Shown: positions 1,156 to 30,040 of the stretch, piece by piece
Numbering within the stretch: the first letter of the stretch is position 1
Layout: each line of letters starts with the position of its first letter
Origin: a virus
Lineage: Duplodnaviria; Heunggongvirae; Uroviricota; Caudoviricetes
Reading direction: 5' to 3' (one strand)
Virus record (IMG/VR): IMGVR_UViG_2541047931_000005
Span: 1 to 33,086 of that record
DNA length: 33,086 nt
Program-made: the position numbers and the translations under genes
Notes under the pieces: model-generated
Told to the model about the DNA's origin: nothing
Databases searched by the model: none
Seen by the model: only the letters and a program-made list of their open reading frames with translations

Positions 1156-2199
1156 TTAAAGAATACTTGCCAGATACTTAAGTTGTCTTTGATATCGAGT
1201 AACCGACTGGTTAACTTGTAACCTTTTCCCTTCACTTACTGTATGGAAGCGACCAACTTTTAGCTGTGATATTGGTATGCTTTCAGCCCCACTAATTTGC
1301 CCGCTTGATACAAAATCATCTGTAACCACAATTGCTTTGCTAACATCTTCATCGGCAAAGAGATGACTGTATTTTTCAGCGATTTTTACAGCTCTCTCTA
1401 TGTACATTTGAGATGCGCGACCTGGTGTTGATGATTTACGGCTTTTTGAACCAGCCATTGTCATTACGATCGCTGCTACTTTTGGAGCCCCAAGCCCACC
1501 CGCACGCTCATTCCATAATACAAAATCTTTTGATTTATTTGCCAGCATTTCCATTGTGAGATGAAGTGACTCAATTGAGTGTTCATCTACGCGTACAGGG
1601 ATAATCAATGCCTCAGACGCGCACCATGCTAGGTGTGTTCCTCCAGCATAGAAAGGGCTTGTATCCATCAATAAAATTTCGCATTTTTTGTCTTTCGCTT
1701 CATCGTTCATTATTGCGCGAAGAGAATTTAATAGTGTTGATACTGCTTTTGGTTCTCCGCGAGATAGCGCTACTTGTAGTTGTTGATACATGCTTGATGG
1801 GAAAGCGAATAGCTCAGGATCACCTGGAATCGCATAACATGCCTTACCACCTTTAAAATCTGGGCAGAAATTACTTACTCGATATGAAATATCTTCTGGC
1901 TGCTCACCAAAAGCTGGACCCAGCATTTTTGGTGTCAGTGCATTAGCTATTGTTACAACCGGTTTTTCACCACGCAATAGTGTCTCCGTTAAATTACATT
2001 GCGGGCATAAGTCAGCCACTAATACGGAGTTACGTCGTGACAGCTCATAGGCGAGGTTGAATGTCATCGTGGACTTACCAACACCACCGCGCAGATTGGA
2101 AACTGCATAACTTTTGAATTTTGGCCCGCCATCTACGACGTAACCTTCCTCAACAACTTGTGCATAGCGTGCCATTACTGACTCAACTACAGTGCTCAT
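1156..2199 (-). CDS. ParA/MinD/Soj-like P-loop ATPase with a C-terminal extension, function unknown (candidate accessory or exclusion gene)
   Basis: 347-aa ORF with deviant Walker A (LRGGVGKST), A'-like (VLVADLCPQCNLT) and Walker B-like (ILLMDTSP) motifs; AGGAGG RBS 7 nt before the ATG; AT-rich compared with its flanks. Confidence 0.85.
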   Translation of the reverse strand: MSTVVESVMARYAQVVEEGYVVDGGPKFKSYAVSNLRGGVGKSTMTFNLAYELSRRNSVLVADLCPQCNLTETLLRGEKPVVTIANALTPKMLGPAFGEQPEDISYRVSNFCPDFKGGKACYAIPGDPELFAFPSSMYQQLQVALSRGEPKAVSTLLNSLRAIMNDEAKDKKCEILLMDTSPFYAGGTHLAWCASEALIIPVRVDEHSIESLHLTMEMLANKSKDFVLWNERAGGLGAPKVAAIVMTMAGSKSRKSSTPGRASQMYIERAVKIAEKYSHLFADEDVSKAIVVTDDFVSSGQISGAESIPISQLKVGRFHTVSEGKRLQVNQSVTRYQRQLKYLASIL

Positions 2200-2225
2200 A
2201 TGAATTCCTCCTTTAAATTTTGAAT

Positions 2226-2254
2226 ATTAAAGCACCACAATGATGCAGGAGCAA
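2226..2254 (-). promoter_or_regulatory. Candidate sigma70 promoter for the ParA-like gene
   Basis: Minus strand: -35 TTGCTC, 17-bp spacer, TGn-extended -10 TTTAAT, about 25 nt upstream of the ATG at 2199. Sequence only. Confidence 0.35.
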
Positions 2255-2330
2255 TAAAAAAGCGCAGGAGAATGTAAAATTAGCAGGTGAATTAAAAATG
2301 CGCAGGAGATGTGATGTTTTGCAGGTTGAC
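2242..2330. repeat. Five phased direct repeats (core GCAGGAG/GCAGGTG/GCAGGTT, 18-20 bp period) each followed by an A/T tract
   Basis: GCAGG cores start at 2245, 2265, 2283, 2302 and 2321 on the plus strand, upstream of and overlapping the candidate promoter of the ParA-like gene. Confidence 0.6.
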
Positions 2331-2422
2331 TGAACAAATGCTGATGTATACCTCGTTTGTAGATAGGTATGTTAATTGCTATATAACATGCTTATGTTAT
2401 TGATATTTATATATATTAATCA

Positions 2423-2452
2423 TAAAAAAAGGCCGCACTTCTGTGCGACCTT
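2423..2452 (-). terminator. Intrinsic terminator immediately downstream of cI
   Basis: Minus strand GGUCGCAC-AGAA-GUGCGGCC hairpin followed by U7, beginning 5 nt after the cI stop codon. Confidence 0.65.
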
Positions 2453-2455
2453 TCA

Positions 2456-3172
<717 letters not shown>

Positions 3173-3179
3173 TTAAATC

Positions 3180-3245
3180 TATCACCGCAAGGGATAAACT
3201 TCTAACACCGTGCGTGTTGACTATTTTACCTCTAGCGGTGATAAT
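3180..3245. promoter_or_regulatory. OR3-OR2-OR1 operators with divergent pRM and pR
   Basis: OR3 TATCACCGCAAGGGATA (3180-3196), OR2 TAACACCGTGCGTGTTG (3203-3219), OR1 TACCTCTAGCGGTGATA (3227-3243); pR -35 TTGACT 3217-3222 and -10 GATAAT 3240-3245. Confidence 0.85.
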
Positions 3246-3269
3246 GATTACCTGTACTAAGGAGGTTGT

Positions 3270-3470
3270 ATGGAACAACGCATAACCCTGAAAGATTATG
3301 CAATACGCTTTGGGCAAACCAAGACGGCTAAAGATCTCGGCGTATATCAAAGCGCGATTAACAAGGCCATTCATGCAGGCCGAAAGATTTTTTTAACTAT
3401 AAACGCTGATGGAAGCGTTTATGCGGAAGAAATAAAGCCCTTCCCAAGTAACAAAAAAACAGCTGCATAA
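3270..3470 (+). CDS. cro: Cro repressor
   Basis: 66-aa [57 protein letters not shown]..., lambda Cro-like; AGGAGG RBS. Confidence 0.95.
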
Positions 3471-5047: not shown

Positions 5048-6924
5048 GGCCAAGTGAACTTAGCGACCTGCTTTGGGCGCAGGTTGACAGGGTGGCTCCG
5101 CACCTGTTGCCAAATGGCAAGAAAGAGGGGCATGAGTGGGTTGCCGGTAACGTCAACGGTGACAAGGGAAACAGCCTTAAGGTCAACCTTAGCGGCAAGA
5201 AAAAATGGGCTGATTTCGCTGAGGGAGACGGCGGTGACATGCTTGATTTGTGGATGGCATGTCGTGGAATTAACCTGCATCAGGCTATGCAGGAAGCGAA
5301 AGCATTTCTCGGTATCAAGGATGACGATCACCATTTCGATGCCAGACGTGAGAAGAAATTCTCCAGACCTGATCGCAAGAAAATCGCCCGCTACGTTACC
5401 AGAACAGAATCCCATCTTGAGTACCTGCAATCGCGTGGCATATCGCCAGAAGTCGTAAAGCGCTACGAGGTTGTCAGCGGCAAGGTGTGGAATGGAGAAC
5501 GAGAACTGGATGCTCTGGTGCTTCCGTACAAACGCGATGGTGAGTTGTTGCAGGTCAAGCGAATCAGCACTGAGCGCCCGGACGGGAAGAAAGTCATTAT
5601 GGCAGAAGGTGATTGCGAACCTTGTCTGTTCGGATGGCAGGCTCTGGACGCTGGCGTGAGGGCGGTTGTGCTTTGCGAAGGCGAAATTGATTGTATGAGC
5701 TATGCGCAATACGGCATCTCGGCATTATCCGTGCCGTTTGGTGGAGGGAAAGGCGCTAAGCAACAGTGGATTGAGTTTGAGTATCACAACCTCGACAGGT
5801 TTGAGGAAATATTCATCTCGATGGACGTTGATGATGTTGGTCGTGAAGCCGCAAGGGAAATCGCAAGCCGACTCGGTGAACATCGTTGCCGTCTTGTTAC
5901 TCTGCCGTACAAAGACATCAACGAATGCCTGATGAACGGTGTTACCGATGATGAAATCTGGCAGTACATCGGCACGGCATCCTACTTCGATCCTGAAGAA
6001 CTCTACAGCGCGCGAGAGTTTTACCAGGACACTATCAACGCTTTCTACGGCAAGCAGCAGTATCTGTTTAATCCACCGTGGGAATCTCTGGCAGATAAAT
6101 TCCAGTTCCGTGAGGCCGAGTTGACGCTGGTCAATGGTGTGAACGGTCACGGAAAAACGGAGGTTGTCGGGCATATGGCACTTGAGGCAATGCGTCAGGG
6201 TGTGAAGACGTGCATCGCGTCACTTGAGCTGAAGCCAGGCATTCTCCTTAAGCGACTTACCCGTCAGGCGACGTGCTGCAAGATGCCGCCAGTGCTGGAA
6301 ATTGACTCTGCATTTAAATTTTATGACGAAAGACTTTGGGTGTTTGGCCTGACCGGAACGGCGAAAGCCGACAGGCTGATCGAAATATTCGACTACGCTC
6401 GCCGCCGATACGGCATCCAGTTATTCATCATCGACAGCCTGATGAAATGTGGCATAGGCGACGATGACTATAACGGGCAGAAGGCGTTTGTTGACTCGAT
6501 TTGCGACTTCAAAAACAAAACAAACTCCCACGTCATTCTCGTTACTCACTCGCGAAAAGGAGACAGCGAAGAAAAACCAACCGGGAAAATGGACGTAAAA
6601 GGCTCTGGAGCGATAACAGACCTGACAGACAACCTTTTTATCATCTGGCGTAACAAGGCTCGCGAGAGAGCGTTACAGAGAGTTCAGAGTGGTGAAAAGA
6701 TGTCAGAGAAGGACGAACAGCTACTGGCGTCTCCTGCATCTGTTTTGATGCTTGAAAAACAACGTAACGGCGAAGGTTGGGAAGGTGGTGTCCCGTTGTT
6801 CCTTGACGAGCAATCGCACCAGTTCCTGCAACTTGAATCAGGATCGCCATATAGCTACATCGCCAATATGCCGAAATCGGAATATGACGAGGCGTGGCGA
6901 CAGGAAAACGTGACGGAGTATTAA
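5044..6924 (+). CDS. Bifunctional DNA primase (Toprim) / DnaB-like replicative helicase
   Basis: 626 aa; Toprim-like VVLCEGEIDCMSYAQYG in the N-terminal half; Walker A GVNGHGKTE and Walker B LFIIDSL in the C-terminal half. Confidence 0.85.
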   Translation: MRPSELSDLLWAQVDRVAPHLLPNGKKEGHEWVAGNVNGDKGNSLKVNLSGKKKWADFAEGDGGDMLDLWMACRGINLHQAMQEAKAFLGIKDDDHHFDARREKKFSRPDRKKIARYVTRTESHLEYLQSRGISPEVVKRYEVVSGKVWNGERELDALVLPYKRDGELLQVKRISTERPDGKKVIMAEGDCEPCLFGWQALDAGVRAVVLCEGEIDCMSYAQYGISALSVPFGGGKGAKQQWIEFEYHNLDRFEEIFISMDVDDVGREAAREIASRLGEHRCRLVTLPYKDINECLMNGVTDDEIWQYIGTASYFDPEELYSAREFYQDTINAFYGKQQYLFNPPWESLADKFQFREAELTLVNGVNGHGKTEVVGHMALEAMRQGVKTCIASLELKPGILLKRLTRQATCCKMPPVLEIDSAFKFYDERLWVFGLTGTAKADRLIEIFDYARRRYGIQLFIIDSLMKCGIGDDDYNGQKAFVDSICDFKNKTNSHVILVTHSRKGDSEEKPTGKMDVKGSGAITDLTDNLFIIWRNKARERALQRVQSGEKMSEKDEQLLASPASVLMLEKQRNGEGWEGGVPLFLDEQSHQFLQLESGSPYSYIANMPKSEYDEAWRQENVTEY

Positions 6925-26108: not shown

Positions 26109-26498
26109 TTAACATTTTCTTTTTACTTTTCCAACAAAAGCTTTGGTTGAATCCATATTCCCATAACCAGAAATGGTTTTTGACATTAAAACTGTTCCAG
26201 TAGGATGTATTACCCATGAGTCGATAACGCGTTGAGTTTCGCCATTCGCGCCGATTCCTATGATGGAGTTTTTAGACAATGCTTTGTAAGCCATGCCGCC
26301 CGCATCTGTCCCAGAATATGTGATGCTGGCATCTTCACCGCTTGTCTTAATGATGAATGTTCCACTAAAACCATCTTCTTCCGGATGGAAATTATTTCGT
26401 TCTGAATAGCTTATTCCGCGCATATCTCCAACGACCCAGCACTCTGCTGTAGCCCCAAAAGATATGAATAAGAACATAGCAGCAAGAAATTGCTTCAC
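26109..26498 (-). CDS. Small secreted (Sec signal peptide) protein of unknown function
   Basis: GTG start at 26498 preceded by AAGGAG; N-terminus KQFLAAMFLFISFGATA then ECWVV... (predicted cleavage after ATA); about 110-aa mature protein with Cys near both ends. Confidence 0.55.
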   Translation of the reverse strand: MKQFLAAMFLFISFGATAECWVVGDMRGISYSERNNFHPEEDGFSGTFIIKTSGEDASITYSGTDAGGMAYKALSKNSIIGIGANGETQRVIDSWVIHPTGTVLMSKTISGYGNMDSTKAFVGKVKRKC

Positions 26499-26528
26499 AC
26501 CAAGCTCCTTAGTTTTGAGCAGGATACC

Positions 26529-26894
26529 ATGAAAAAAGTTAACATTGGAAACGTACCAAAGATGCTCGTTCCGCTCTTTGAGAGCGGTACAATTGTGTTT
26601 TGTAGAGACTTTCCAGAATGGCAACGCCTGCATCAAAAACTTGGCGTTGACGTGCATGACTCGGACGCCAACGGAGCGTCTCATACAATGAGCAGCGAGA
26701 ATGGTGTTTTGCATGTGATAGGCGTGTTCAATGGCAAACTATCTACTATTGCCCATGAGTGCGCTCACATGGCATTCGATATCTGCTCAAGGGTCGGTGT
26801 TGATGTTGAACCAGGAAGAGCCAATGAGACTTACTGCTACTTAATGAGCAGGCTTGTTGAGTTCTGCGAGCGACATATCAAAAAGCCGGAGTGA
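26529..26894 (+). CDS. HExxH-motif protein (putative zinc-metallopeptidase-like), unknown family
   Basis: 121 aa from ATG 26529; HECAH at 26754-26768; divergently arranged with the secreted-protein gene. Confidence 0.6.
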   Translation: MKKVNIGNVPKMLVPLFESGTIVFCRDFPEWQRLHQKLGVDVHDSDANGASHTMSSENGVLHVIGVFNGKLSTIAHECAHMAFDICSRVGVDVEPGRANETYCYLMSRLVEFCERHIKKPE

Positions 26895-26901
26895 CCCGGC
26901 T
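26879..26901 (-). terminator. Hairpin terminator for the small minus-strand gene (overlaps the HExxH gene 3' end)
   Basis: Minus strand AGCCGG-GUCACU-CCGGCU followed by UUUUU. Confidence 0.5.
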
Positions 26902-26907
26902 TGAGTA

Positions 26908-27087
26908 TTACTTTTTGCTGTCTGGAGTTCGCTTATCCAATACCCAGCCATGACCTGGCTTTGTTGTTGGTGGAAGCCTTTCGTTGTCCTTGACGGTTGC
27001 AAAATTGTCTTTCTTACCGCCGCGTGGGCCAACTTCTTGGTATATTCCGCCGTTTTTTCCTGTGTTTTCACCTGGTTTTTTCGCCAT
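26908..27087 (-). CDS. Small basic glycine-rich protein (59 aa), unknown function
   Basis: MAKKPGENTGKNGGIYQEVGPRGGKKDNFATVKDNERLPPTTKPGHGWVLDKRTPDSKK; ATG at 27087 with GAGG RBS 6 nt upstream. Confidence 0.5.
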   Translation of the reverse strand: MAKKPGENTGKNGGIYQEVGPRGGKKDNFATVKDNERLPPTTKPGHGWVLDKRTPDSKK

Positions 27088-27177
27088 GATATACCTCAAC
27101 ATATACCCGTTATTGGGCGATTAAATATTGATCTCATTTTATAAGTAGTCAATATGGCCCAGGTAAATGCAAAAATT

Positions 27178-27203
27178 AACCCACCGTCAGGTGGGTTTTT
27201 TTA
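27178..27203. terminator. Hairpin with flanking A/T tracts (possible bidirectional terminator)
   Basis: AACCCACC-GTCAG-GTGGGTT followed by T7 on the plus strand and preceded by an A-tract. Confidence 0.5.
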
Positions 27204-27234
27204 TCTTCTCTACTTTAAAGATTAAGGAAATACC

Positions 27235-27420
27235 ATGACCATAGAAGAACGTCTGAACAACATTGAGTTGAATCAAACCCTGCTTGACCAGCGACTTTCA
27301 GATCTTGAGCTTAAAGATCTAGATGTGCAAATATCAGAAGCAGAAGCCAAGCTCTCCAGCTTAAACCACCGCAGGAAGCAAATCCGCGACAGAATTACTC
27401 GTGGACGCGGAGGCTGTTAA
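27235..27420 (+). CDS. Small coiled-coil protein (61 aa)
   Basis: MTIEERLNNIELNQTLLDQRLSDLELKDLDVQISEAEAKLSSLNHRRKQIRDRITRGRGGC; AAGGA RBS; heptad-like leucine spacing. Confidence 0.5.
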   Translation: MTIEERLNNIELNQTLLDQRLSDLELKDLDVQISEAEAKLSSLNHRRKQIRDRITRGRGGC

Positions 27421-27497
27421 GGTGTGATGGTAATCCTTGCTCACTAAATTTAAGGATGCGAATCTTTCCGGCCATAGGAGTAATCATGATTTACCCA

Positions 27498-28034
27498 TCA
27501 AACAACCCACCAGTTTGCCTGATTGGATACCAGCCTTGCAGTTTTTATGGAATTAATTATGCCATGCTCAAGAGCCTTGTTAGCATCCAAAATGGTCGAG
27601 TCTGCTATCAGGGATGCCCACCTAATATGGGTTCCGATGTCGATATTGAACGTCTCAACGAAGCGATCAAGATCGTTATCGAGGCATTTCCCGTACTCTC
27701 TCAATCTGGCATGGTCGGCGGCTGGGGAGGCAAAGCACCATAATAGAGGATGTAACAGGAATCTTGATAATGGGTTTGCGAAACGTTCTGAGCCAGCCAG
27801 GAAAACGATATTAGCTATGGATTCAACATTGCTTATGTTGTGAGTTCTAACGGTAACAGGGAGTGACTTAAGAAAGTTATACGCAGTAAAGCCAGCGGCA
27901 GTTTCCCCTCCCTGACTTGATATATGGATATTTAATTCAGTTGCGCCTTGAGATAATGCGGTGAGACAGTGGTTCTGAAGTTGCCCAACAGTGGCAGTGT
28001 TAACGGGGCATAAGAAATGAATTGTGTGCAGCAT
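27498..28034 (-). CDS. ClpP-like (S14 family) serine peptidase homolog
   Basis: 178 aa; ISSQGGETAAGFTAYNFL matches the ClpP xSPGGxxxAGxxIYD region; plausible Ser (ESIAN), His (LLHPL), Asp (ADSTILDA) triad positions; start overlaps the Mnt-like stop (TAATG). Confidence 0.7.
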   Translation of the reverse strand: MLHTIHFLCPVNTATVGQLQNHCLTALSQGATELNIHISSQGGETAAGFTAYNFLKSLPVTVRTHNISNVESIANIVFLAGSERFANPLSRFLLHPLLWCFASPAADHARLREYGKCLDNDLDRFVETFNIDIGTHIRWASLIADSTILDANKALEHGIINSIKTARLVSNQANWWVV

Positions 28035-28288
28035 TATTTATCATCCTTGCCATAAATCTTTTTAAGTGTCTCAAACACAACGGCCTTGAACTGCTCTGCT
28101 TGCTGATCAGCCAAGCGTTCAGCTTCGTCTCGATAGCCTGCAATCGGTGATGGCTTTGAGAGAGCATCCTGAACGATTTGTAATAACTCAGAGTTCATTG
28201 ACCTTCCGTTAGCCTCTGCTCTTAATTTCAATTTTTCTCTTACTTCCAAAGGCATACGGAAGTTAAAGTGCGGATCGTTTCTAGCCAT
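28034..28288 (-). CDS. mnt: Mnt-like ribbon-helix-helix repressor
   Basis: 84 aa; MARNDPHFNFRMPLEVREKLKLRAEANGRSMNSELLQIVQDALSKPSP... closely resembles P22 Mnt. Confidence 0.85.
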   Translation of the reverse strand: MARNDPHFNFRMPLEVREKLKLRAEANGRSMNSELLQIVQDALSKPSPIAGYRDEAERLADQQAEQFKAVVFETLKKIYGKDDK

Positions 28289-28311
28289 GCCATCACCCCA
28301 AGTTAGTATCT

Positions 28312-28569
28312 CTAACTTTCGTCTTTATTGTTGCCATACATGCATTTCAACTTCTCAACATCATGTTCAAGATCTATCAATCGTGATGCTATAGTTGCAA
28401 GGTCTAGTGCTTGAATGTGTTTATTTTTTTCTGTCCACGCTTCAAGTGCCGCGACCATCTCAGCATTTAATGAACGAGAATTAGCCTCAGCCAGTTCAAT
28501 AAGACGTTCCTTTATCTCTACAGGAAGCCTCAGATTCACTTGAGGGTTTTTGTACTTACGATCAGACAT
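28312..28569 (-). CDS. Arc/Mnt-family ribbon-helix-helix protein (paralog 2)
   Basis: VNLRLPVEIKERLIELAEANSRSLNAEMVAALEAW; ATG at 28569 with AGGA 7 nt upstream (alternative GTG at 28575). Confidence 0.7.
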   Translation of the reverse strand: MSDRKYKNPQVNLRLPVEIKERLIELAEANSRSLNAEMVAALEAWTEKNKHIQALDLATIASRLIDLEHDVEKLKCMYGNNKDES

Positions 28570-28586
28570 CGGCACATCCTGAATAA

Positions 28587-28826
28587 TTATTTACCATACA
28601 TGGTCTTTAGCGTCTCAAGTAGCGCCTCTTTGAATTTATCAGCTTCTTGGTTAGCGAATCCTTCAAGTGAGCGAGAGCCATCAAGATTATCAACATGTTT
28701 TTGAAGGATAAGCACGATCTCTGAGTTCATTGATCTGCCGTTTTTATCCGCTTCTTGCTGAATGCGTTTCTTTAAATAGTCTGGAATCCTAATCCCCAAT
28801 GGACTGATATCTCTTGCACCTTTCAT
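28587..28826 (-). CDS. Arc/Mnt-family ribbon-helix-helix protein (paralog 3)
   Basis: MKGARDISPLGIRIPDYLKKRIQQEADKNGRSMNSEIVLILQKH...; ATG at 28826 with GGAGGAG RBS; N-terminus paralogous to the divergent Arc-like ORF. Confidence 0.7.
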   Translation of the reverse strand: MKGARDISPLGIRIPDYLKKRIQQEADKNGRSMNSEIVLILQKHVDNLDGSRSLEGFANQEADKFKEALLETLKTMYGK

Positions 28827-28844
28827 TTCTCCTCCTGCACGCTG

Positions 28845-28920
28845 TGCATAGCTACACAGTGTAGGCAAAAAAATTTTGACTTTAAATAAACACGGTGTAG
28901 TATTTAGTTATCACGGTGTA
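28845..28920. promoter_or_regulatory. Divergent promoter/operator region between the RHH operon and arc-ant
   Basis: Perfect inverted repeat CTACAC-A-GTGTAG (28850-28862) plus two direct copies of CACGGTGTAG (28891-28900, 28912-28921), with TTGACT and TATTTAGTTA promoter-like elements. Confidence 0.5.
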
Positions 28921-28934
28921 GCAAGTGAGGGGAA

Positions 28935-29075
28935 ATGAAAGTTAGAGACATCGCTCCATTAGGGATTCGTATCCCGCCAGAGATTAAAGAAAAATTGAAG
29001 GAAAAGGCTAAGGAGGAGGGCAGGTCTTTAAATTCAGAAATAGTGCAGCGTCTTATTCGCAGCCTAAAAAGTTGA
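28935..29075 (+). CDS. arc: Arc-like ribbon-helix-helix repressor
   Basis: 46 aa; [46 protein letters not shown]; RBS GAGGGG; directly upstream of ant as in P22. Confidence 0.7.
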
Positions 29076-29137
29076 AGCCCCAACTGCGGGAACAGTCAGG
29101 GCTTCGGTTGTCAGTAAATCCGTGGAGAAAAACCAAC

Positions 29138-30040
29138 ATGAATAGTATAGCAATTTTAGAAGCGGTGAACACCTCTTACGTGCCATTCAACGGTCAGCAA
29201 ATTATCACCGCCATGGCTGCCGGAGTTGCATATGTTGCGATGAAGCCAATCGTTGAAAACCTCGGAATGAGCTGGTCAACGCAGCAAACAAAACTCATGA
29301 AGCAGATTAGCAAATTCAACTGTGTTCATATGAACATGGTTGCCGCTGATGGTAAGCTTCGTAAGCTACTCTGCCTTCCTTTGAAGAAGTTAAATGGATG
29401 GCTGTTCAGCATCAACCCTGAGAAAGTTCGTGCTGACATCCGCGATAAACTGATTCAGTACCAGGAAGAATGCTTTACTGTGCTGCATGACTACTGGACA
29501 AAGGGAGAGGCAGCAAATGCACGGAAGAAAACATCTGTTGATGACAGGACTCCGCTTCGTGATGCTGTAAATATGCTAGTCAGCAAAAAGCATCTAATGT
29601 ACCCAGAAGCTTATGCAATGATTCATCAGCGTTTCAATGTGGAAAGTATTGAAGAGCTTGATGCATCTCAGATACCGCAAGCCGTAGAGTACATCCACAG
29701 GGTAGTGCTTGAAGGTGAATTTATCGGCAAACAAGAGAGGAAAGTCAACGAGCTTTCTGCAAAAGAAGCAAACAGCCTTGTATGGTTATGGGATTATGCC
29801 AACCGCTCACAGGCATTATTCCGCGAATTGTATCCGGCGCTAAAACAAATTCAATCGAACTATTCAGGCAGATGTCATGACTGCGGTTATGAGTTCTCCC
29901 GTATTATCGATATGGCGAGAGATGTTTTAATCAACCATACACGAGATGTTGATATTAATGAGCCAGGCGGACCGACGAACCTTTCAGCATGGATAAGACT
30001 TAAGAATAAAGAATTACCTCCTTCAGTACATAACTACTGA
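29138..30040 (+). CDS. ant: Antirepressor Ant (P22 Ant-like)
   Basis: 300 aa from ATG 29138 ([21 protein letters not shown]...), same length and N-terminus as P22 Ant. Confidence 0.9.

Follow-up and report, generated by a model that had tools for sequence, protein, structure and literature searches.

The two small genes examined here are unrelated, are inherited independently, and do not form a linked pair. ORF A, on the minus strand, is the gene known in P22 as orf59a and, by profile comparison, belongs to the YjzC-like superfamily as a divergent member. ORF B, on the plus strand, belongs to the Emek orf61 family and is a predicted single-helix protein, probably a coiled-coil oligomer. The arrangement that we favor as the probable one has ORF A as a self-contained moron, ORF B as a passenger of late read-through transcription, and the tMNT terminator standing between them. 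The window, a 33,086-nucleotide stretch of DNA, is a P22-like (Lederbergvirus) prophage, and both genes belong to the "ant moron" (immI region), a hypervariable segment bounded by injection gene 16 on one side and the tailspike gene on the other (Table 1).

Cargo exchange at this hotspot has been described before. The study that defined the ant moron reports that polymerase initiated at PLate reads through the moron into the tailspike gene (PMC2629481). Positions 26,496–27,202 are ~98% identical to P22, whose record carries orf59a and a terminator at matching positions. To the right of the two-gene locus lie the sar RNA, arc, ant, and Mnt-type repressors; searched with Rfam across its full length, and more permissively over positions 26,400–29,200, the window yielded the sar RNA alone, with nothing inside the two-gene locus. 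The preliminary description had placed two small protein-coding genes on opposite strands, each with a good ribosome-binding site, among the cargo of an immunity region. All of this holds: both ORFs are present with GAGGT and AAGGA sites, their reading frames are conserved in relatives, and the place is the cargo-rich immunity I region of a temperate phage. The terms "orphan" and "easily missed" fare less well. Homologues fall into 110 clusters for ORF A and 41 for ORF B, both genes belong to PHROG families, and both are annotated coding sequences in RefSeq/GenBank. PGAP calls each of them (WP_001085430.1 and WP_001554901.1, respectively), P22 orf59a has been annotated for ~25 years, and the Emek annotation includes orf61. 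Public records of P22, HK620, Emek, Kapi1, and RefSeq E. coli genomes already annotate both genes and both adjoining hairpins, and, being annotated and ordinary, the genes carry little weight as a discovery. What becomes clearer is that P22 orf59a belongs to the YjzC-like superfamily and behaves as a portable reverse-strand moron of several unrelated prophage types, and that ORF A and ORF B should not be handled as a unit.

Table 1. Features of the two-gene locus and its right flank, in window coordinates
Feature	Position	Strand	Description
Hairpin 1, AAGCCGG-AGTGAC-CCGGCTT	26883..26902	both	Rho-independent terminator of ORF A; minus-strand tail TTTTTGAT
ORF A, 59 aa	26908..27087	minus	P22 orf59a / HK620 HkcD (phrog_3202); small basic protein, predicted beta fold, divergent YjzC-like superfamily member
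ORF A Shine-Dalgarno, GAGGT	27093..27097	minus	5 nt before ATG; read from sequence
Promoter-like site, TTGACT-17 nt-AATATT	27124..27152	minus	36 nt upstream of ORF A; consensus match only
Hairpin 2, AACCCACC-GTCA-GGTGGGTT	27178..27204 (stem 27178-27197)	both	Bidirectional terminator; perfect 8-bp stem
ORF B Shine-Dalgarno, AAGGA	27224..27228	plus	6 nt before ATG
ORF B, 61 aa	27235..27420	plus	Emek orf61 / phrog_7586 family
Remnant of convergent gene orf69 (phrog_16466), 30 aa	27395..27487	minus	C-terminus SHLNSLRVHE vs SHLNSFRVPE in Emek orf69
ClpP-like gene	27498..28034	minus	Truncates orf69 here

ORF A encodes a protein with 10 glycines and a net charge of about +6, and residues 1–58 matched phrog_3202 in a profile search (E = 7.3e-31). 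Its product is 98.3% identical to that of P22 orf59a, the DNA being ~98% identical as well, and it shares with P22 orf59a and HK620 HkcD the upstream region, the terminator, and a place downstream of the mnt-side hairpin. Synteny gives the same assignment: the gene lies in the ant moron on the leftward strand and is followed by the t-mnt/tORF59A terminator. P22 differs upstream, where the neighbor is mnt; here, it is a terminator hairpin and then the oppositely oriented ORF B. In the survey that defined the ant moron, "hkcC, 59a" are entered among the P22 genes of unknown function (PMC2629481). The GAGGT sequence is invariant in P22, HK620, and one E. coli prophage. A 64-aa form starting at an in-frame ATG at position 27,102 was rejected because it lacks a comparable Shine-Dalgarno sequence and the N-termini of homologues align at the 59-aa start, so that both considerations favor the shorter form only. 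Comparisons with the Morganella, S. bongori, and Xenorhabdus homologues gave pS values of 0.78–0.89 and pN values of 0.12–0.30, and relatives retain 63–81% protein identity despite saturated synonymous sites. By these measures, ORF A is under strong purifying selection.

The relationship to YjzC emerges from family profiles and predicted structure. Against Pfam PF14168 (YjzC), ORF A scored 19.4 bits (E = 0.0013), under the gathering threshold of 25 bits; 43 of 90 aligned ORF A relatives matched the same model, with E-values to 4e-10. Alignment of the ORF A family with its Pfam-YjzC-labeled relatives using hhalign gave a probability of 98.9% (E = 1e-17) over 52 columns. The core motif YQEvGPRGG ... 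LPPT is common to the ORF A family and YjzC, the two are homologous at the profile level, and residues G14, E18, G20, P21, R22, G23, and P39 are invariant in the alignment. The AlphaFold2 model of ORF A contains three strands (pLDDT 86.5), and the sole significant match in a Foldseek search of predicted viral structures was a "YjzC-like protein" (E = 7e-5). We conclude that ORF A is a divergent member of the superfamily, though not a member by the Pfam threshold. With B. subtilis YjzC and M. tuberculosis Rv1954A, it shares a length of 55–65 aa and the motifs PG..G.YQEVGPRGG and LPPT..G. The enterobacterial ORF A subfamily stands apart by a C-terminal motif of its own, W..(x)5 TPDSK, and by residing in prophages rather than in chromosomal operons.

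Each of the two hairpins is a terminator that serves both strands. Hairpin 1 (−12.1 kcal/mol, z = −2.8), which also ends the hkcC-like gene on the plus strand, is annotated as "t mnt" in P22-pbi and as "bidirectional terminator; tORF59A" in HK620. Hairpin 2 (−15.5 kcal/mol, z = −5.2; none of 200 shuffled sequences matches its folding energy), annotated as "tMNT" in HK620, has a T7 tail on the plus strand and an AATTTTT tail on the minus strand. In one relative, its stem is kept via compensatory changes (CCAGCC/GGCTGG). The P22 counterpart carries two mismatches and extends into the 3' end of mnt, covering its final codons and stop codon; because of these mismatches, orf59a could simply be co-transcribed with mnt in that phage. 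Homology to P22, HK620, and one E. coli relative stops right past hairpin 2, and in Emek and context L007, too, ORF B is preceded by this hairpin. Hairpin 2 thus marks a mosaic joint between ORF A and ORF B, and it would insulate the two transcription directions while doubling as a recombination joint.

ORF A resembles phage morons, the term used for the ant moron itself (PMC2629481), in its reverse-strand position within a late operon and in its terminator and promoter-like site. Its terminator lies directly downstream, the gene is present in some syntenic relatives and absent from others, and its orientation opposes the surrounding operon. The promoter-like site matches 9 of 12 consensus positions and has a weak −10 hexamer (AATATT); a scan found fewer such sites in the ORF A/ORF B region than in shuffled sequence. 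P22, HK620, and E. coli relatives carry the site unchanged, and the Morganella homologue has both hexamers and their spacing intact upstream, with the flanking sequence otherwise diverged. TTGAAA-16-CATATT precedes the Xenorhabdus homologue, and the scan found no promoter-like site in the region upstream of the S. bongori homologue. Among the contexts inspected, terminators also lie 3' of the Morganella and S. bongori homologues. As reverse-strand inserts, ORF A homologues occupy at least five unrelated prophage settings: the ant moron of P22-like phages, the space between lysis and terminase genes in S. bongori, the Xenorhabdus lysis region, and clusters of tail genes in Rosenbergiella and of head genes in a Clostridium phage.

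In the model that we favor, ORF A would be a self-contained leftward unit consisting of a sigma-70-like promoter, a strong ribosome-binding site, the gene, and a rho-independent terminator, and it would share its strand with the prophage-expressed mnt and sieA against the late operon. Given this strand and organization, the lysogen most likely produces the predicted protein, as is classical for a "moron." The protein would be cytoplasmic and may bind some host or phage macromolecule. The likeness to morons has two limits: prophage expression of ORF A is a prediction, and ORF B, being opposite in orientation and without its own promoter, fits the definition loosely. A literature search covering orf59a, YjzC, hkcC, and the P22 and Kapi1 lysogen transcriptomes found no functional or gene-specific expression data, the matches for hkcC being mostly to unrelated acronyms.

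ORF B matched phrog_7586 along its entire length (residues 1–61 of 61; E = 1.1e-43). It is 92% identical to Emek orf61/Kapi1_061, which has the same strand and the same place between gene 16 and mnt, and the upstream hairpin is a further likeness to Emek. Throughout the family, the gene keeps to the plus (late) strand and to the interval from gene 16 to mnt, and its range covers only P22-like prophages of Escherichia, Salmonella, and Serratia. The ATG is constant, and the purine-rich ribosome-binding sequences ahead of it differ between contexts. Values of dN/dS were 0.04–0.2, with synonymous sites saturated against Serratia, and relatives retain 66–74% protein identity despite such saturation. 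An exhaustive profile search for remote relatives among 1.84 billion representatives returned its own phrog_7586-type family, of only ~9 clusters, plus two weak matches to long repetitive proteins. The 3' boundary sets this prophage apart: the end of ORF B overlaps an intact convergent orf69 by 26 nt in Emek, Kapi1, and Serratia, whereas here, only a remnant of orf69 is left, followed by the ClpP-like gene. As constant partner genes, orf69, a phrog_6067 lipoprotein, and the SocA_Panacea gene pair were tried, and each varies across contexts. The AlphaFold2 model of ORF B (pLDDT 94.2) is one continuous helix spanning residues 3–59, and the C-terminus is a basic tail with Cys as its final residue. 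Profile searches of PDB sequences gave nothing for ORF A and leucine-zipper noise for ORF B (E above 0.01).

We propose that ORF B would be translated from the antiterminated PLate transcript running into the tailspike gene, as a passenger gene of late infection. It lies on the late strand behind a terminator or a divergent gene start, 11–37 nt past the terminator in Emek, L007, and this prophage and 27 nt from the divergent gene start in Serratia and L007. Because this leaves no room for a promoter, PLate read-through is most likely, and the position directly 3' of a terminator makes lysogen expression doubtful. An alternative with some remaining weight, although we think it unlikely, is that ORF B is transcribed from a promoter of its own and is prophage-expressed like mnt rather than late. 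Kapi1_061 is absent from the list of undetected genes in the Kapi1 lysogen RNA-seq paper, a list that includes mnt, and in Serratia, L007, or Kapi1, a promoter could sit within the divergent genes that lie upstream. In this prophage, however, a plus-strand scan upstream of ORF B found no promoter-like site, and the T7-tailed terminator lies 37 nt from the ATG; the Emek leader is 11 nt and differs in length and largely in sequence. The Kapi1 authors themselves explain the lytic-gene signal of their cultures by spontaneous induction, and the status of Kapi1_061 is compatible with expression in the lysogen as well as with late transcripts made by cells that had induced spontaneously. Late read-through is the source of ORF B transcripts that we prefer.

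Rather improbable, in our estimate, is a role for one or both proteins as superinfection-exclusion, defense, or anti-defense factors, a narrower form of the suggestion in the preliminary description that such cargo often encodes regulators or anti-defense factors. The idea draws on location and company: in P22-like phages, sieA and other functions expressed from the prophage are housed at the ORF A site, and ORF A homologues occur amid defense and toxin-antitoxin genes (GmrSD, HEPN, and HigB in contexts L012-L014; Tad2-like in L015). In BTP1, a leftward transcript at the equivalent genome position confers immunity (PMC7067206). The YjzC-like protein Rv1954A heads the higBA-chaperone operon of M. 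tuberculosis, the function of the family being unknown (PMC3912914). Direct searches point the other way. PADLOC gave zero matches for ORF A and a weak partial match of ORF B to the 652-position PbeC model (E = 0.001, 15.7 bits), which, like a sub-threshold XhlA match, was taken as coiled-coil noise. Pfam and NCBIfam scans and PDB sequence searches with both proteins, as well as fold searches with ORF A, found no match with a function, and the neighbors of ORF A homologues vary from prophage to prophage. According to the P22 SieA paper, sieA alone suffices for exclusion, which makes orf59a dispensable for it.

A more ambitious extension, which we consider a long shot, is that YjzC-like proteins, P22 orf59a included, constitute a cross-phylum class of prophage-expressed morons, placed on the reverse strand of late operons in phages of Proteobacteria and Firmicutes and sharing one conserved cytoplasmic activity. 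Such an activity might, for example, modulate a toxin-antitoxin or defense pathway or a host stress response; if so, the genetics of a widespread, functionally uncharacterized domain could readily be studied in P22. For assigning YjzC domain function, P22 offers a tractable system.

Relatives of ORF B carry another functional label, which makes it an XhlA-family membrane-associated lysis or hemolysin accessory factor, following the PGAP/CDD name of a 93-aa form; we find this very doubtful. RefSeq names that form "hemolysin XhlA family protein," the Kapi1 record bears a CDD XhlA note, and ORF B has a helical heptad-like segment and a weak match to Pfam XhlA (PF10779; E = 0.02, 15.5 bits). Expression from the late strand would also suit a lysis role. 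The score is nonetheless far under the gathering threshold of 34.7 bits, the 93-aa form gave zero XhlA matches when scanned, and the exhaustive profile search with the ORF B family found no XhlA relatives. The N-terminal extension of the 93-aa form lacks conservation and runs antisense to the coding sequence of a signal-peptide protein, which suggests that this form is probably an over-extended start call. XhlA of PBSX has a C-terminal membrane segment and is associated with a holin/lysin cassette. ORF B differs on both counts: its 61 residues form a single helix, amphipathic or charged, that ends in a basic tail and includes no transmembrane segment, and the gene never adjoins a lysis cassette, its neighbors being immI genes. 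ORF B is not demonstrably XhlA, and the "XhlA family" label on its relatives is unsupported by the tests run.

The preliminary description implied that the two genes work as one functional module, which could mean paired regulators or an islet of toxin-antitoxin type with hairpins as insulators; this is extremely improbable. They are adjacent and divergent here, and the region is rich in cargo that includes, in Emek and L007, a SocA_Panacea-domain gene and a second same-strand gene, possibly a toxin-antitoxin pair. Yet ORF A occurs without ORF B in P22, HK620, and Morganella prophages, and ORF B occurs without ORF A in Emek, Kapi1, and a Serratia prophage. Across 5,426 E. coli genomes, ORF A was found in 116, ORF B in 129, and either in 223; both occur, in the same divergent arrangement and with most of the whole segment, in just ~22. 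A strong bidirectional terminator and a mosaic joint lie between them. The compact islet of the preliminary description thus dissolves into two separately distributed genes, and its flanking hairpins are only partly borne out: both exist where described and adjoin the genes, but they enclose ORF A only, the second lying between the genes.

Finally, the possibility that either ORF, or both, arose by chance in non-coding sequence separating the terminators is effectively refuted: although frames of ~60 codons are common by chance (2.5 kb here is overlapped by 37 ORFs of 25 aa or more), so that length alone is not beyond chance, both are genes because they are conserved as proteins across saturated synonymous sites. 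Their starts are conserved behind differing ribosome-binding sites, both have confident AlphaFold2 models, and AT skew changes sign with the coding strand across the two-gene locus.

Two small genes, here termed ORF A (59 aa) and ORF B (61 aa), lie within the immI region ("ant moron") of a P22-like prophage. This placement rests on ~98% identity to Salmonella phage P22 and dozens of relatives over window positions 26496-27202 (megablast), together with genes for gene-16-type injection proteins on the left flank and Mnt/Arc-type repressors, arc, sar RNA, ant, and a tailspike gene on the right. The ant moron has been described as a hypervariable insert inside the late operon (Villafane et al.). 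An E. coli wastewater isolate carries 26800-27500 at 100% identity, and PGAP calls both small genes there (WP_001085430.1 and WP_001554901.1). The preliminary description had reported the two reading frames on opposite strands, each with a ribosome-binding site before its ATG, and two hairpins; all are present (see table). Its portrayal of orphan genes in an islet bracketed by hairpins does not hold: both genes are known and annotated (P22 orf59a, HK620 HkcD, Emek orf61; phrog_3202, phrog_7586; PGAP), and the hairpins flank ORF A alone, with hairpin 2 standing between ORF A and ORF B. The observation is real, but the features were already known and annotated.

Features of the immI segment and related loci (window coordinates unless a locus is named)
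Feature	Coordinates	Strand	Details
hkcB-like gene (phrog_2651)	26109..26456	-	
hkcC-like gene (phrog_1365)	26532..26894	+	HECAH (HExxH) motif
Hairpin 1	stem 26883-26902		-12.1 kcal/mol
ORF A, 59 aa	26908..27087	-	GAGGT 5 nt 5' of ATG
TTGACT-17-AATATT (promoter-like)	27152..27124	-	36 nt 5' of ORF A ATG
Hairpin 2	stem 27178-27197		perfect 8-bp stem; -15.5 kcal/mol, z -5.2
ORF B, 61 aa	27235..27420	+	AAGGA 6 nt 5' of ATG
orf69 remnant (phrog_16466)	27395..27487	-	30 aa
95-aa ORF	27456..27743	+	phrog_7758, E 1.6e-61
ClpP-like protease gene	27498..28034	-	178 aa; Pfam CLP_protease E 2e-11
Three tandem Arc/Mnt-type ribbon-helix-helix genes	28034..28868	-	leftward
arc gene	28935..29075	+	46 aa; before ant
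sar antisense RNA	29070..29137	-	canonical; before ant; Rfam RF00262, 95.6 bits
Intact orf69, Emek (L002)	3162..3371		69 aa
Intact orf69, Kapi1 (L003)	3161..3370		69 aa
Intact orf69, Serratia prophage (L006)	about 5161..5367		69 aa
SocA_Panacea gene and following gene, Emek (L002)	2088..2961		
SocA_Panacea gene and following gene, Salmonella P22-like prophage (L007)	6056..6923		
Lipoprotein gene (phrog_6067), L006	4512..4973	-	
Lipoprotein gene (phrog_6067), L007	5192..5677	-	
ORF B paralogue, L007	5001..5177		58 aa
ORF B paralogue, L007	6983..7168		61 aa
YjzC-like reading frame, Brochothrix phage NF5 (L019)	2711..2848		antisense to annotated gp50

ORF A and ORF B are not one unit. ORF A occurs without ORF B in P22, HK620, and Morganella prophages, and ORF B without ORF A in Emek, Kapi1, and a Serratia prophage. 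Among 5426 complete E. coli genomes, 116 carry ORF A and 129 carry ORF B; part of the 701-bp segment was present in 223 and most of it in 22. Hairpin 2, with a plus-strand T7 tail and a minus-strand AATTTTT tail, is a common module boundary between the two genes. P22 homology ends at 27202, directly past this hairpin, and P22 is one of three relatives, with HK620 and an E. coli relative, whose homology breaks there. The stem is retained by compensatory changes in one relative, and the loop is flipped in another.

The ORF A protein is 98% identical to P22 orf59a, which the P22-pbi record annotates together with a downstream "t mnt" terminator. HK620 labels the same elements "may encode hypothetical protein HkcD", "bidirectional terminator; tORF59A", and "tMNT". 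ORF A falls in phrog_3202, and a search of 5.8 billion proteins returned 110 homologous clusters, including Providencia, Morganella, Xenorhabdus, Rosenbergiella, and S. bongori, with Pfam YjzC on the weakest matches. Conservation of the reading frames had been proposed as a check, and both coding sequences are kept in homologues, synonymous change far exceeding non-synonymous change. Relative to Morganella, S. bongori, and Xenorhabdus, 78-89% of synonymous but 12-30% of non-synonymous ORF A sites are changed, showing that the ORF A protein is under purifying selection. By itself, ORF A scores 19.4 bits against PF14168, short of the threshold of 25. Because 43 of 90 relatives match PF14168 and profile-profile alignment joins the ORF A subfamily to the Pfam-labelled group at 98.9% probability, we place ORF A, on profile evidence, within the YjzC-like superfamily as a divergent member. 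Its AlphaFold2 model is small and confident (three beta strands, pLDDT 86.5), and the sole significant viral structural match is another YjzC-like protein. Rv1954A, a YjzC-family member from M. tuberculosis, is first in the higBA-chaperone operon (PMC3912914). Brochothrix phage NF5 also holds an unannotated YjzC-like reading frame.

The promoter-like stretch upstream of ORF A is unchanged in P22, HK620, and one E. coli relative. Ahead of the Morganella homologue, identical hexamers with identical spacing stand in otherwise diverged sequence, and Xenorhabdus has TTGAAA-16-CATATT; scanning upstream of the S. bongori homologue found no such site. Rho-independent terminators follow the homologues in the Morganella and S. 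bongori contexts. Reverse-strand homologues lie in a P22-like ant moron downstream of mnt (Morganella), between lysis genes and terminase (S. bongori), adjoining lysis genes (Xenorhabdus), within a tail-gene cluster (Rosenbergiella), adjoining a holin (metagenomic contig), and within the head-gene cluster of Clostridium phage phiCT9441A, whose record reads "YjzC family protein". These signals and settings are the classic moron pattern, from which we infer that ORF A is most likely expressed from the prophage. ORF A would then be a YjzC-like moron product acting in the cytoplasm. According to the P22 SieA paper, sieA by itself is enough for exclusion, making orf59a dispensable for that phenotype. 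The window has the hkcB-like gene in place of P22 sieA; the hydrophobic N-terminus of its product hints at export. The motif in the neighboring hkcC-like product suggests a small metallopeptidase-like protein.

ORF B matches Emek orf61, Kapi1_061, and one more Salmonella phage, as well as phrog_7586 (E 1e-43). Its homologues form only 41 clusters, and every one comes from Escherichia, Salmonella, or Serratia. When 1.84 billion representatives were searched exhaustively with a profile, only ~9 clusters fell in the family and no remote relatives were found. dN/dS is 0.04-0.2, with synonymous sites saturated against the Serratia gene, and the ATG is constant while the ribosome-binding site and upstream sequence vary between contexts. 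AlphaFold2 predicts a single helix (residues 3-59, pLDDT 94). Family members barely vary in the N-terminal half and have a basic C-terminal tail that usually ends in Cys. A 93-aa form goes by "hemolysin XhlA family protein" in RefSeq, a label we do not adopt: ORF B scores 15.5 bits against Pfam XhlA (threshold, 34.7), the 32 extra residues are unconserved and antisense to a small signal-peptide-protein gene, the protein has no membrane segment, and a scan of the 93-aa form gave no XhlA match. E. coli P0149 (58 aa) fuses ORF B residues 1-28 to C-terminal residues of Ant and looks like the outcome of a deletion that took out the entire immI core between these two plus-strand genes. Two diverged ORF B paralogues share a single ant moron in one Salmonella P22-like prophage.

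In all contexts, ORF B shares its strand with the late operon and has gene 16 on one side and the leftward mnt operon on the other. Since late transcription reportedly passes across the ant moron region (PMC2629481), the simplest model is that ORF B is translated from antiterminated late mRNA. ORF B may instead have a hidden promoter; a scan found no plus-strand promoter-like site. Kapi1_061 is absent from the list of undetected genes in Kapi1 lysogen RNA-seq, and, as the authors of that study point out, spontaneous induction contributed signal in their cultures. ORF B starts 11-37 nt past a common T-tailed hairpin in the window, Emek, and one Salmonella prophage; the leader is 11 nt in Emek versus 37 nt in the window and mostly different in sequence. 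In Serratia and a second Salmonella copy, 27 nt separate the ORF B start from the start codon of a divergent gene. Under the late-transcript model, ORF B would be a helical, oligomerising passenger protein.

Several neighbors vary. In Emek, Kapi1, and Serratia, orf69 is intact and shares 26 nt with the 3' end of ORF B; the Serratia copy is not called as a gene, and on our reading of the sequence its ATG and the mnt stop codon overlap in an ATGA. Emek and L007 have, immediately ahead of the hairpin and ORF B, a SocA_Panacea-domain protein gene and then a 147-161 aa gene; the two may form a Panacea-type toxin-antitoxin pair. Beside diverged ORF B copies lies the phrog_6067 lipoprotein gene (N-terminal lipobox; weak match to the Cor exclusion protein's N-terminus), whose orientation relative to ORF B is divergent in Serratia and convergent in Salmonella. 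To the right, the window has three tandem Arc/Mnt-type genes at the place of the single mnt of P22. The ClpP-like gene, uncommon cargo for immI, ends this leftward Mnt operon. PGAP calls the ClpP strand alone, and thus the phrog_7758 family matched by the antisense 95-aa ORF was probably built from shadow ORFs.
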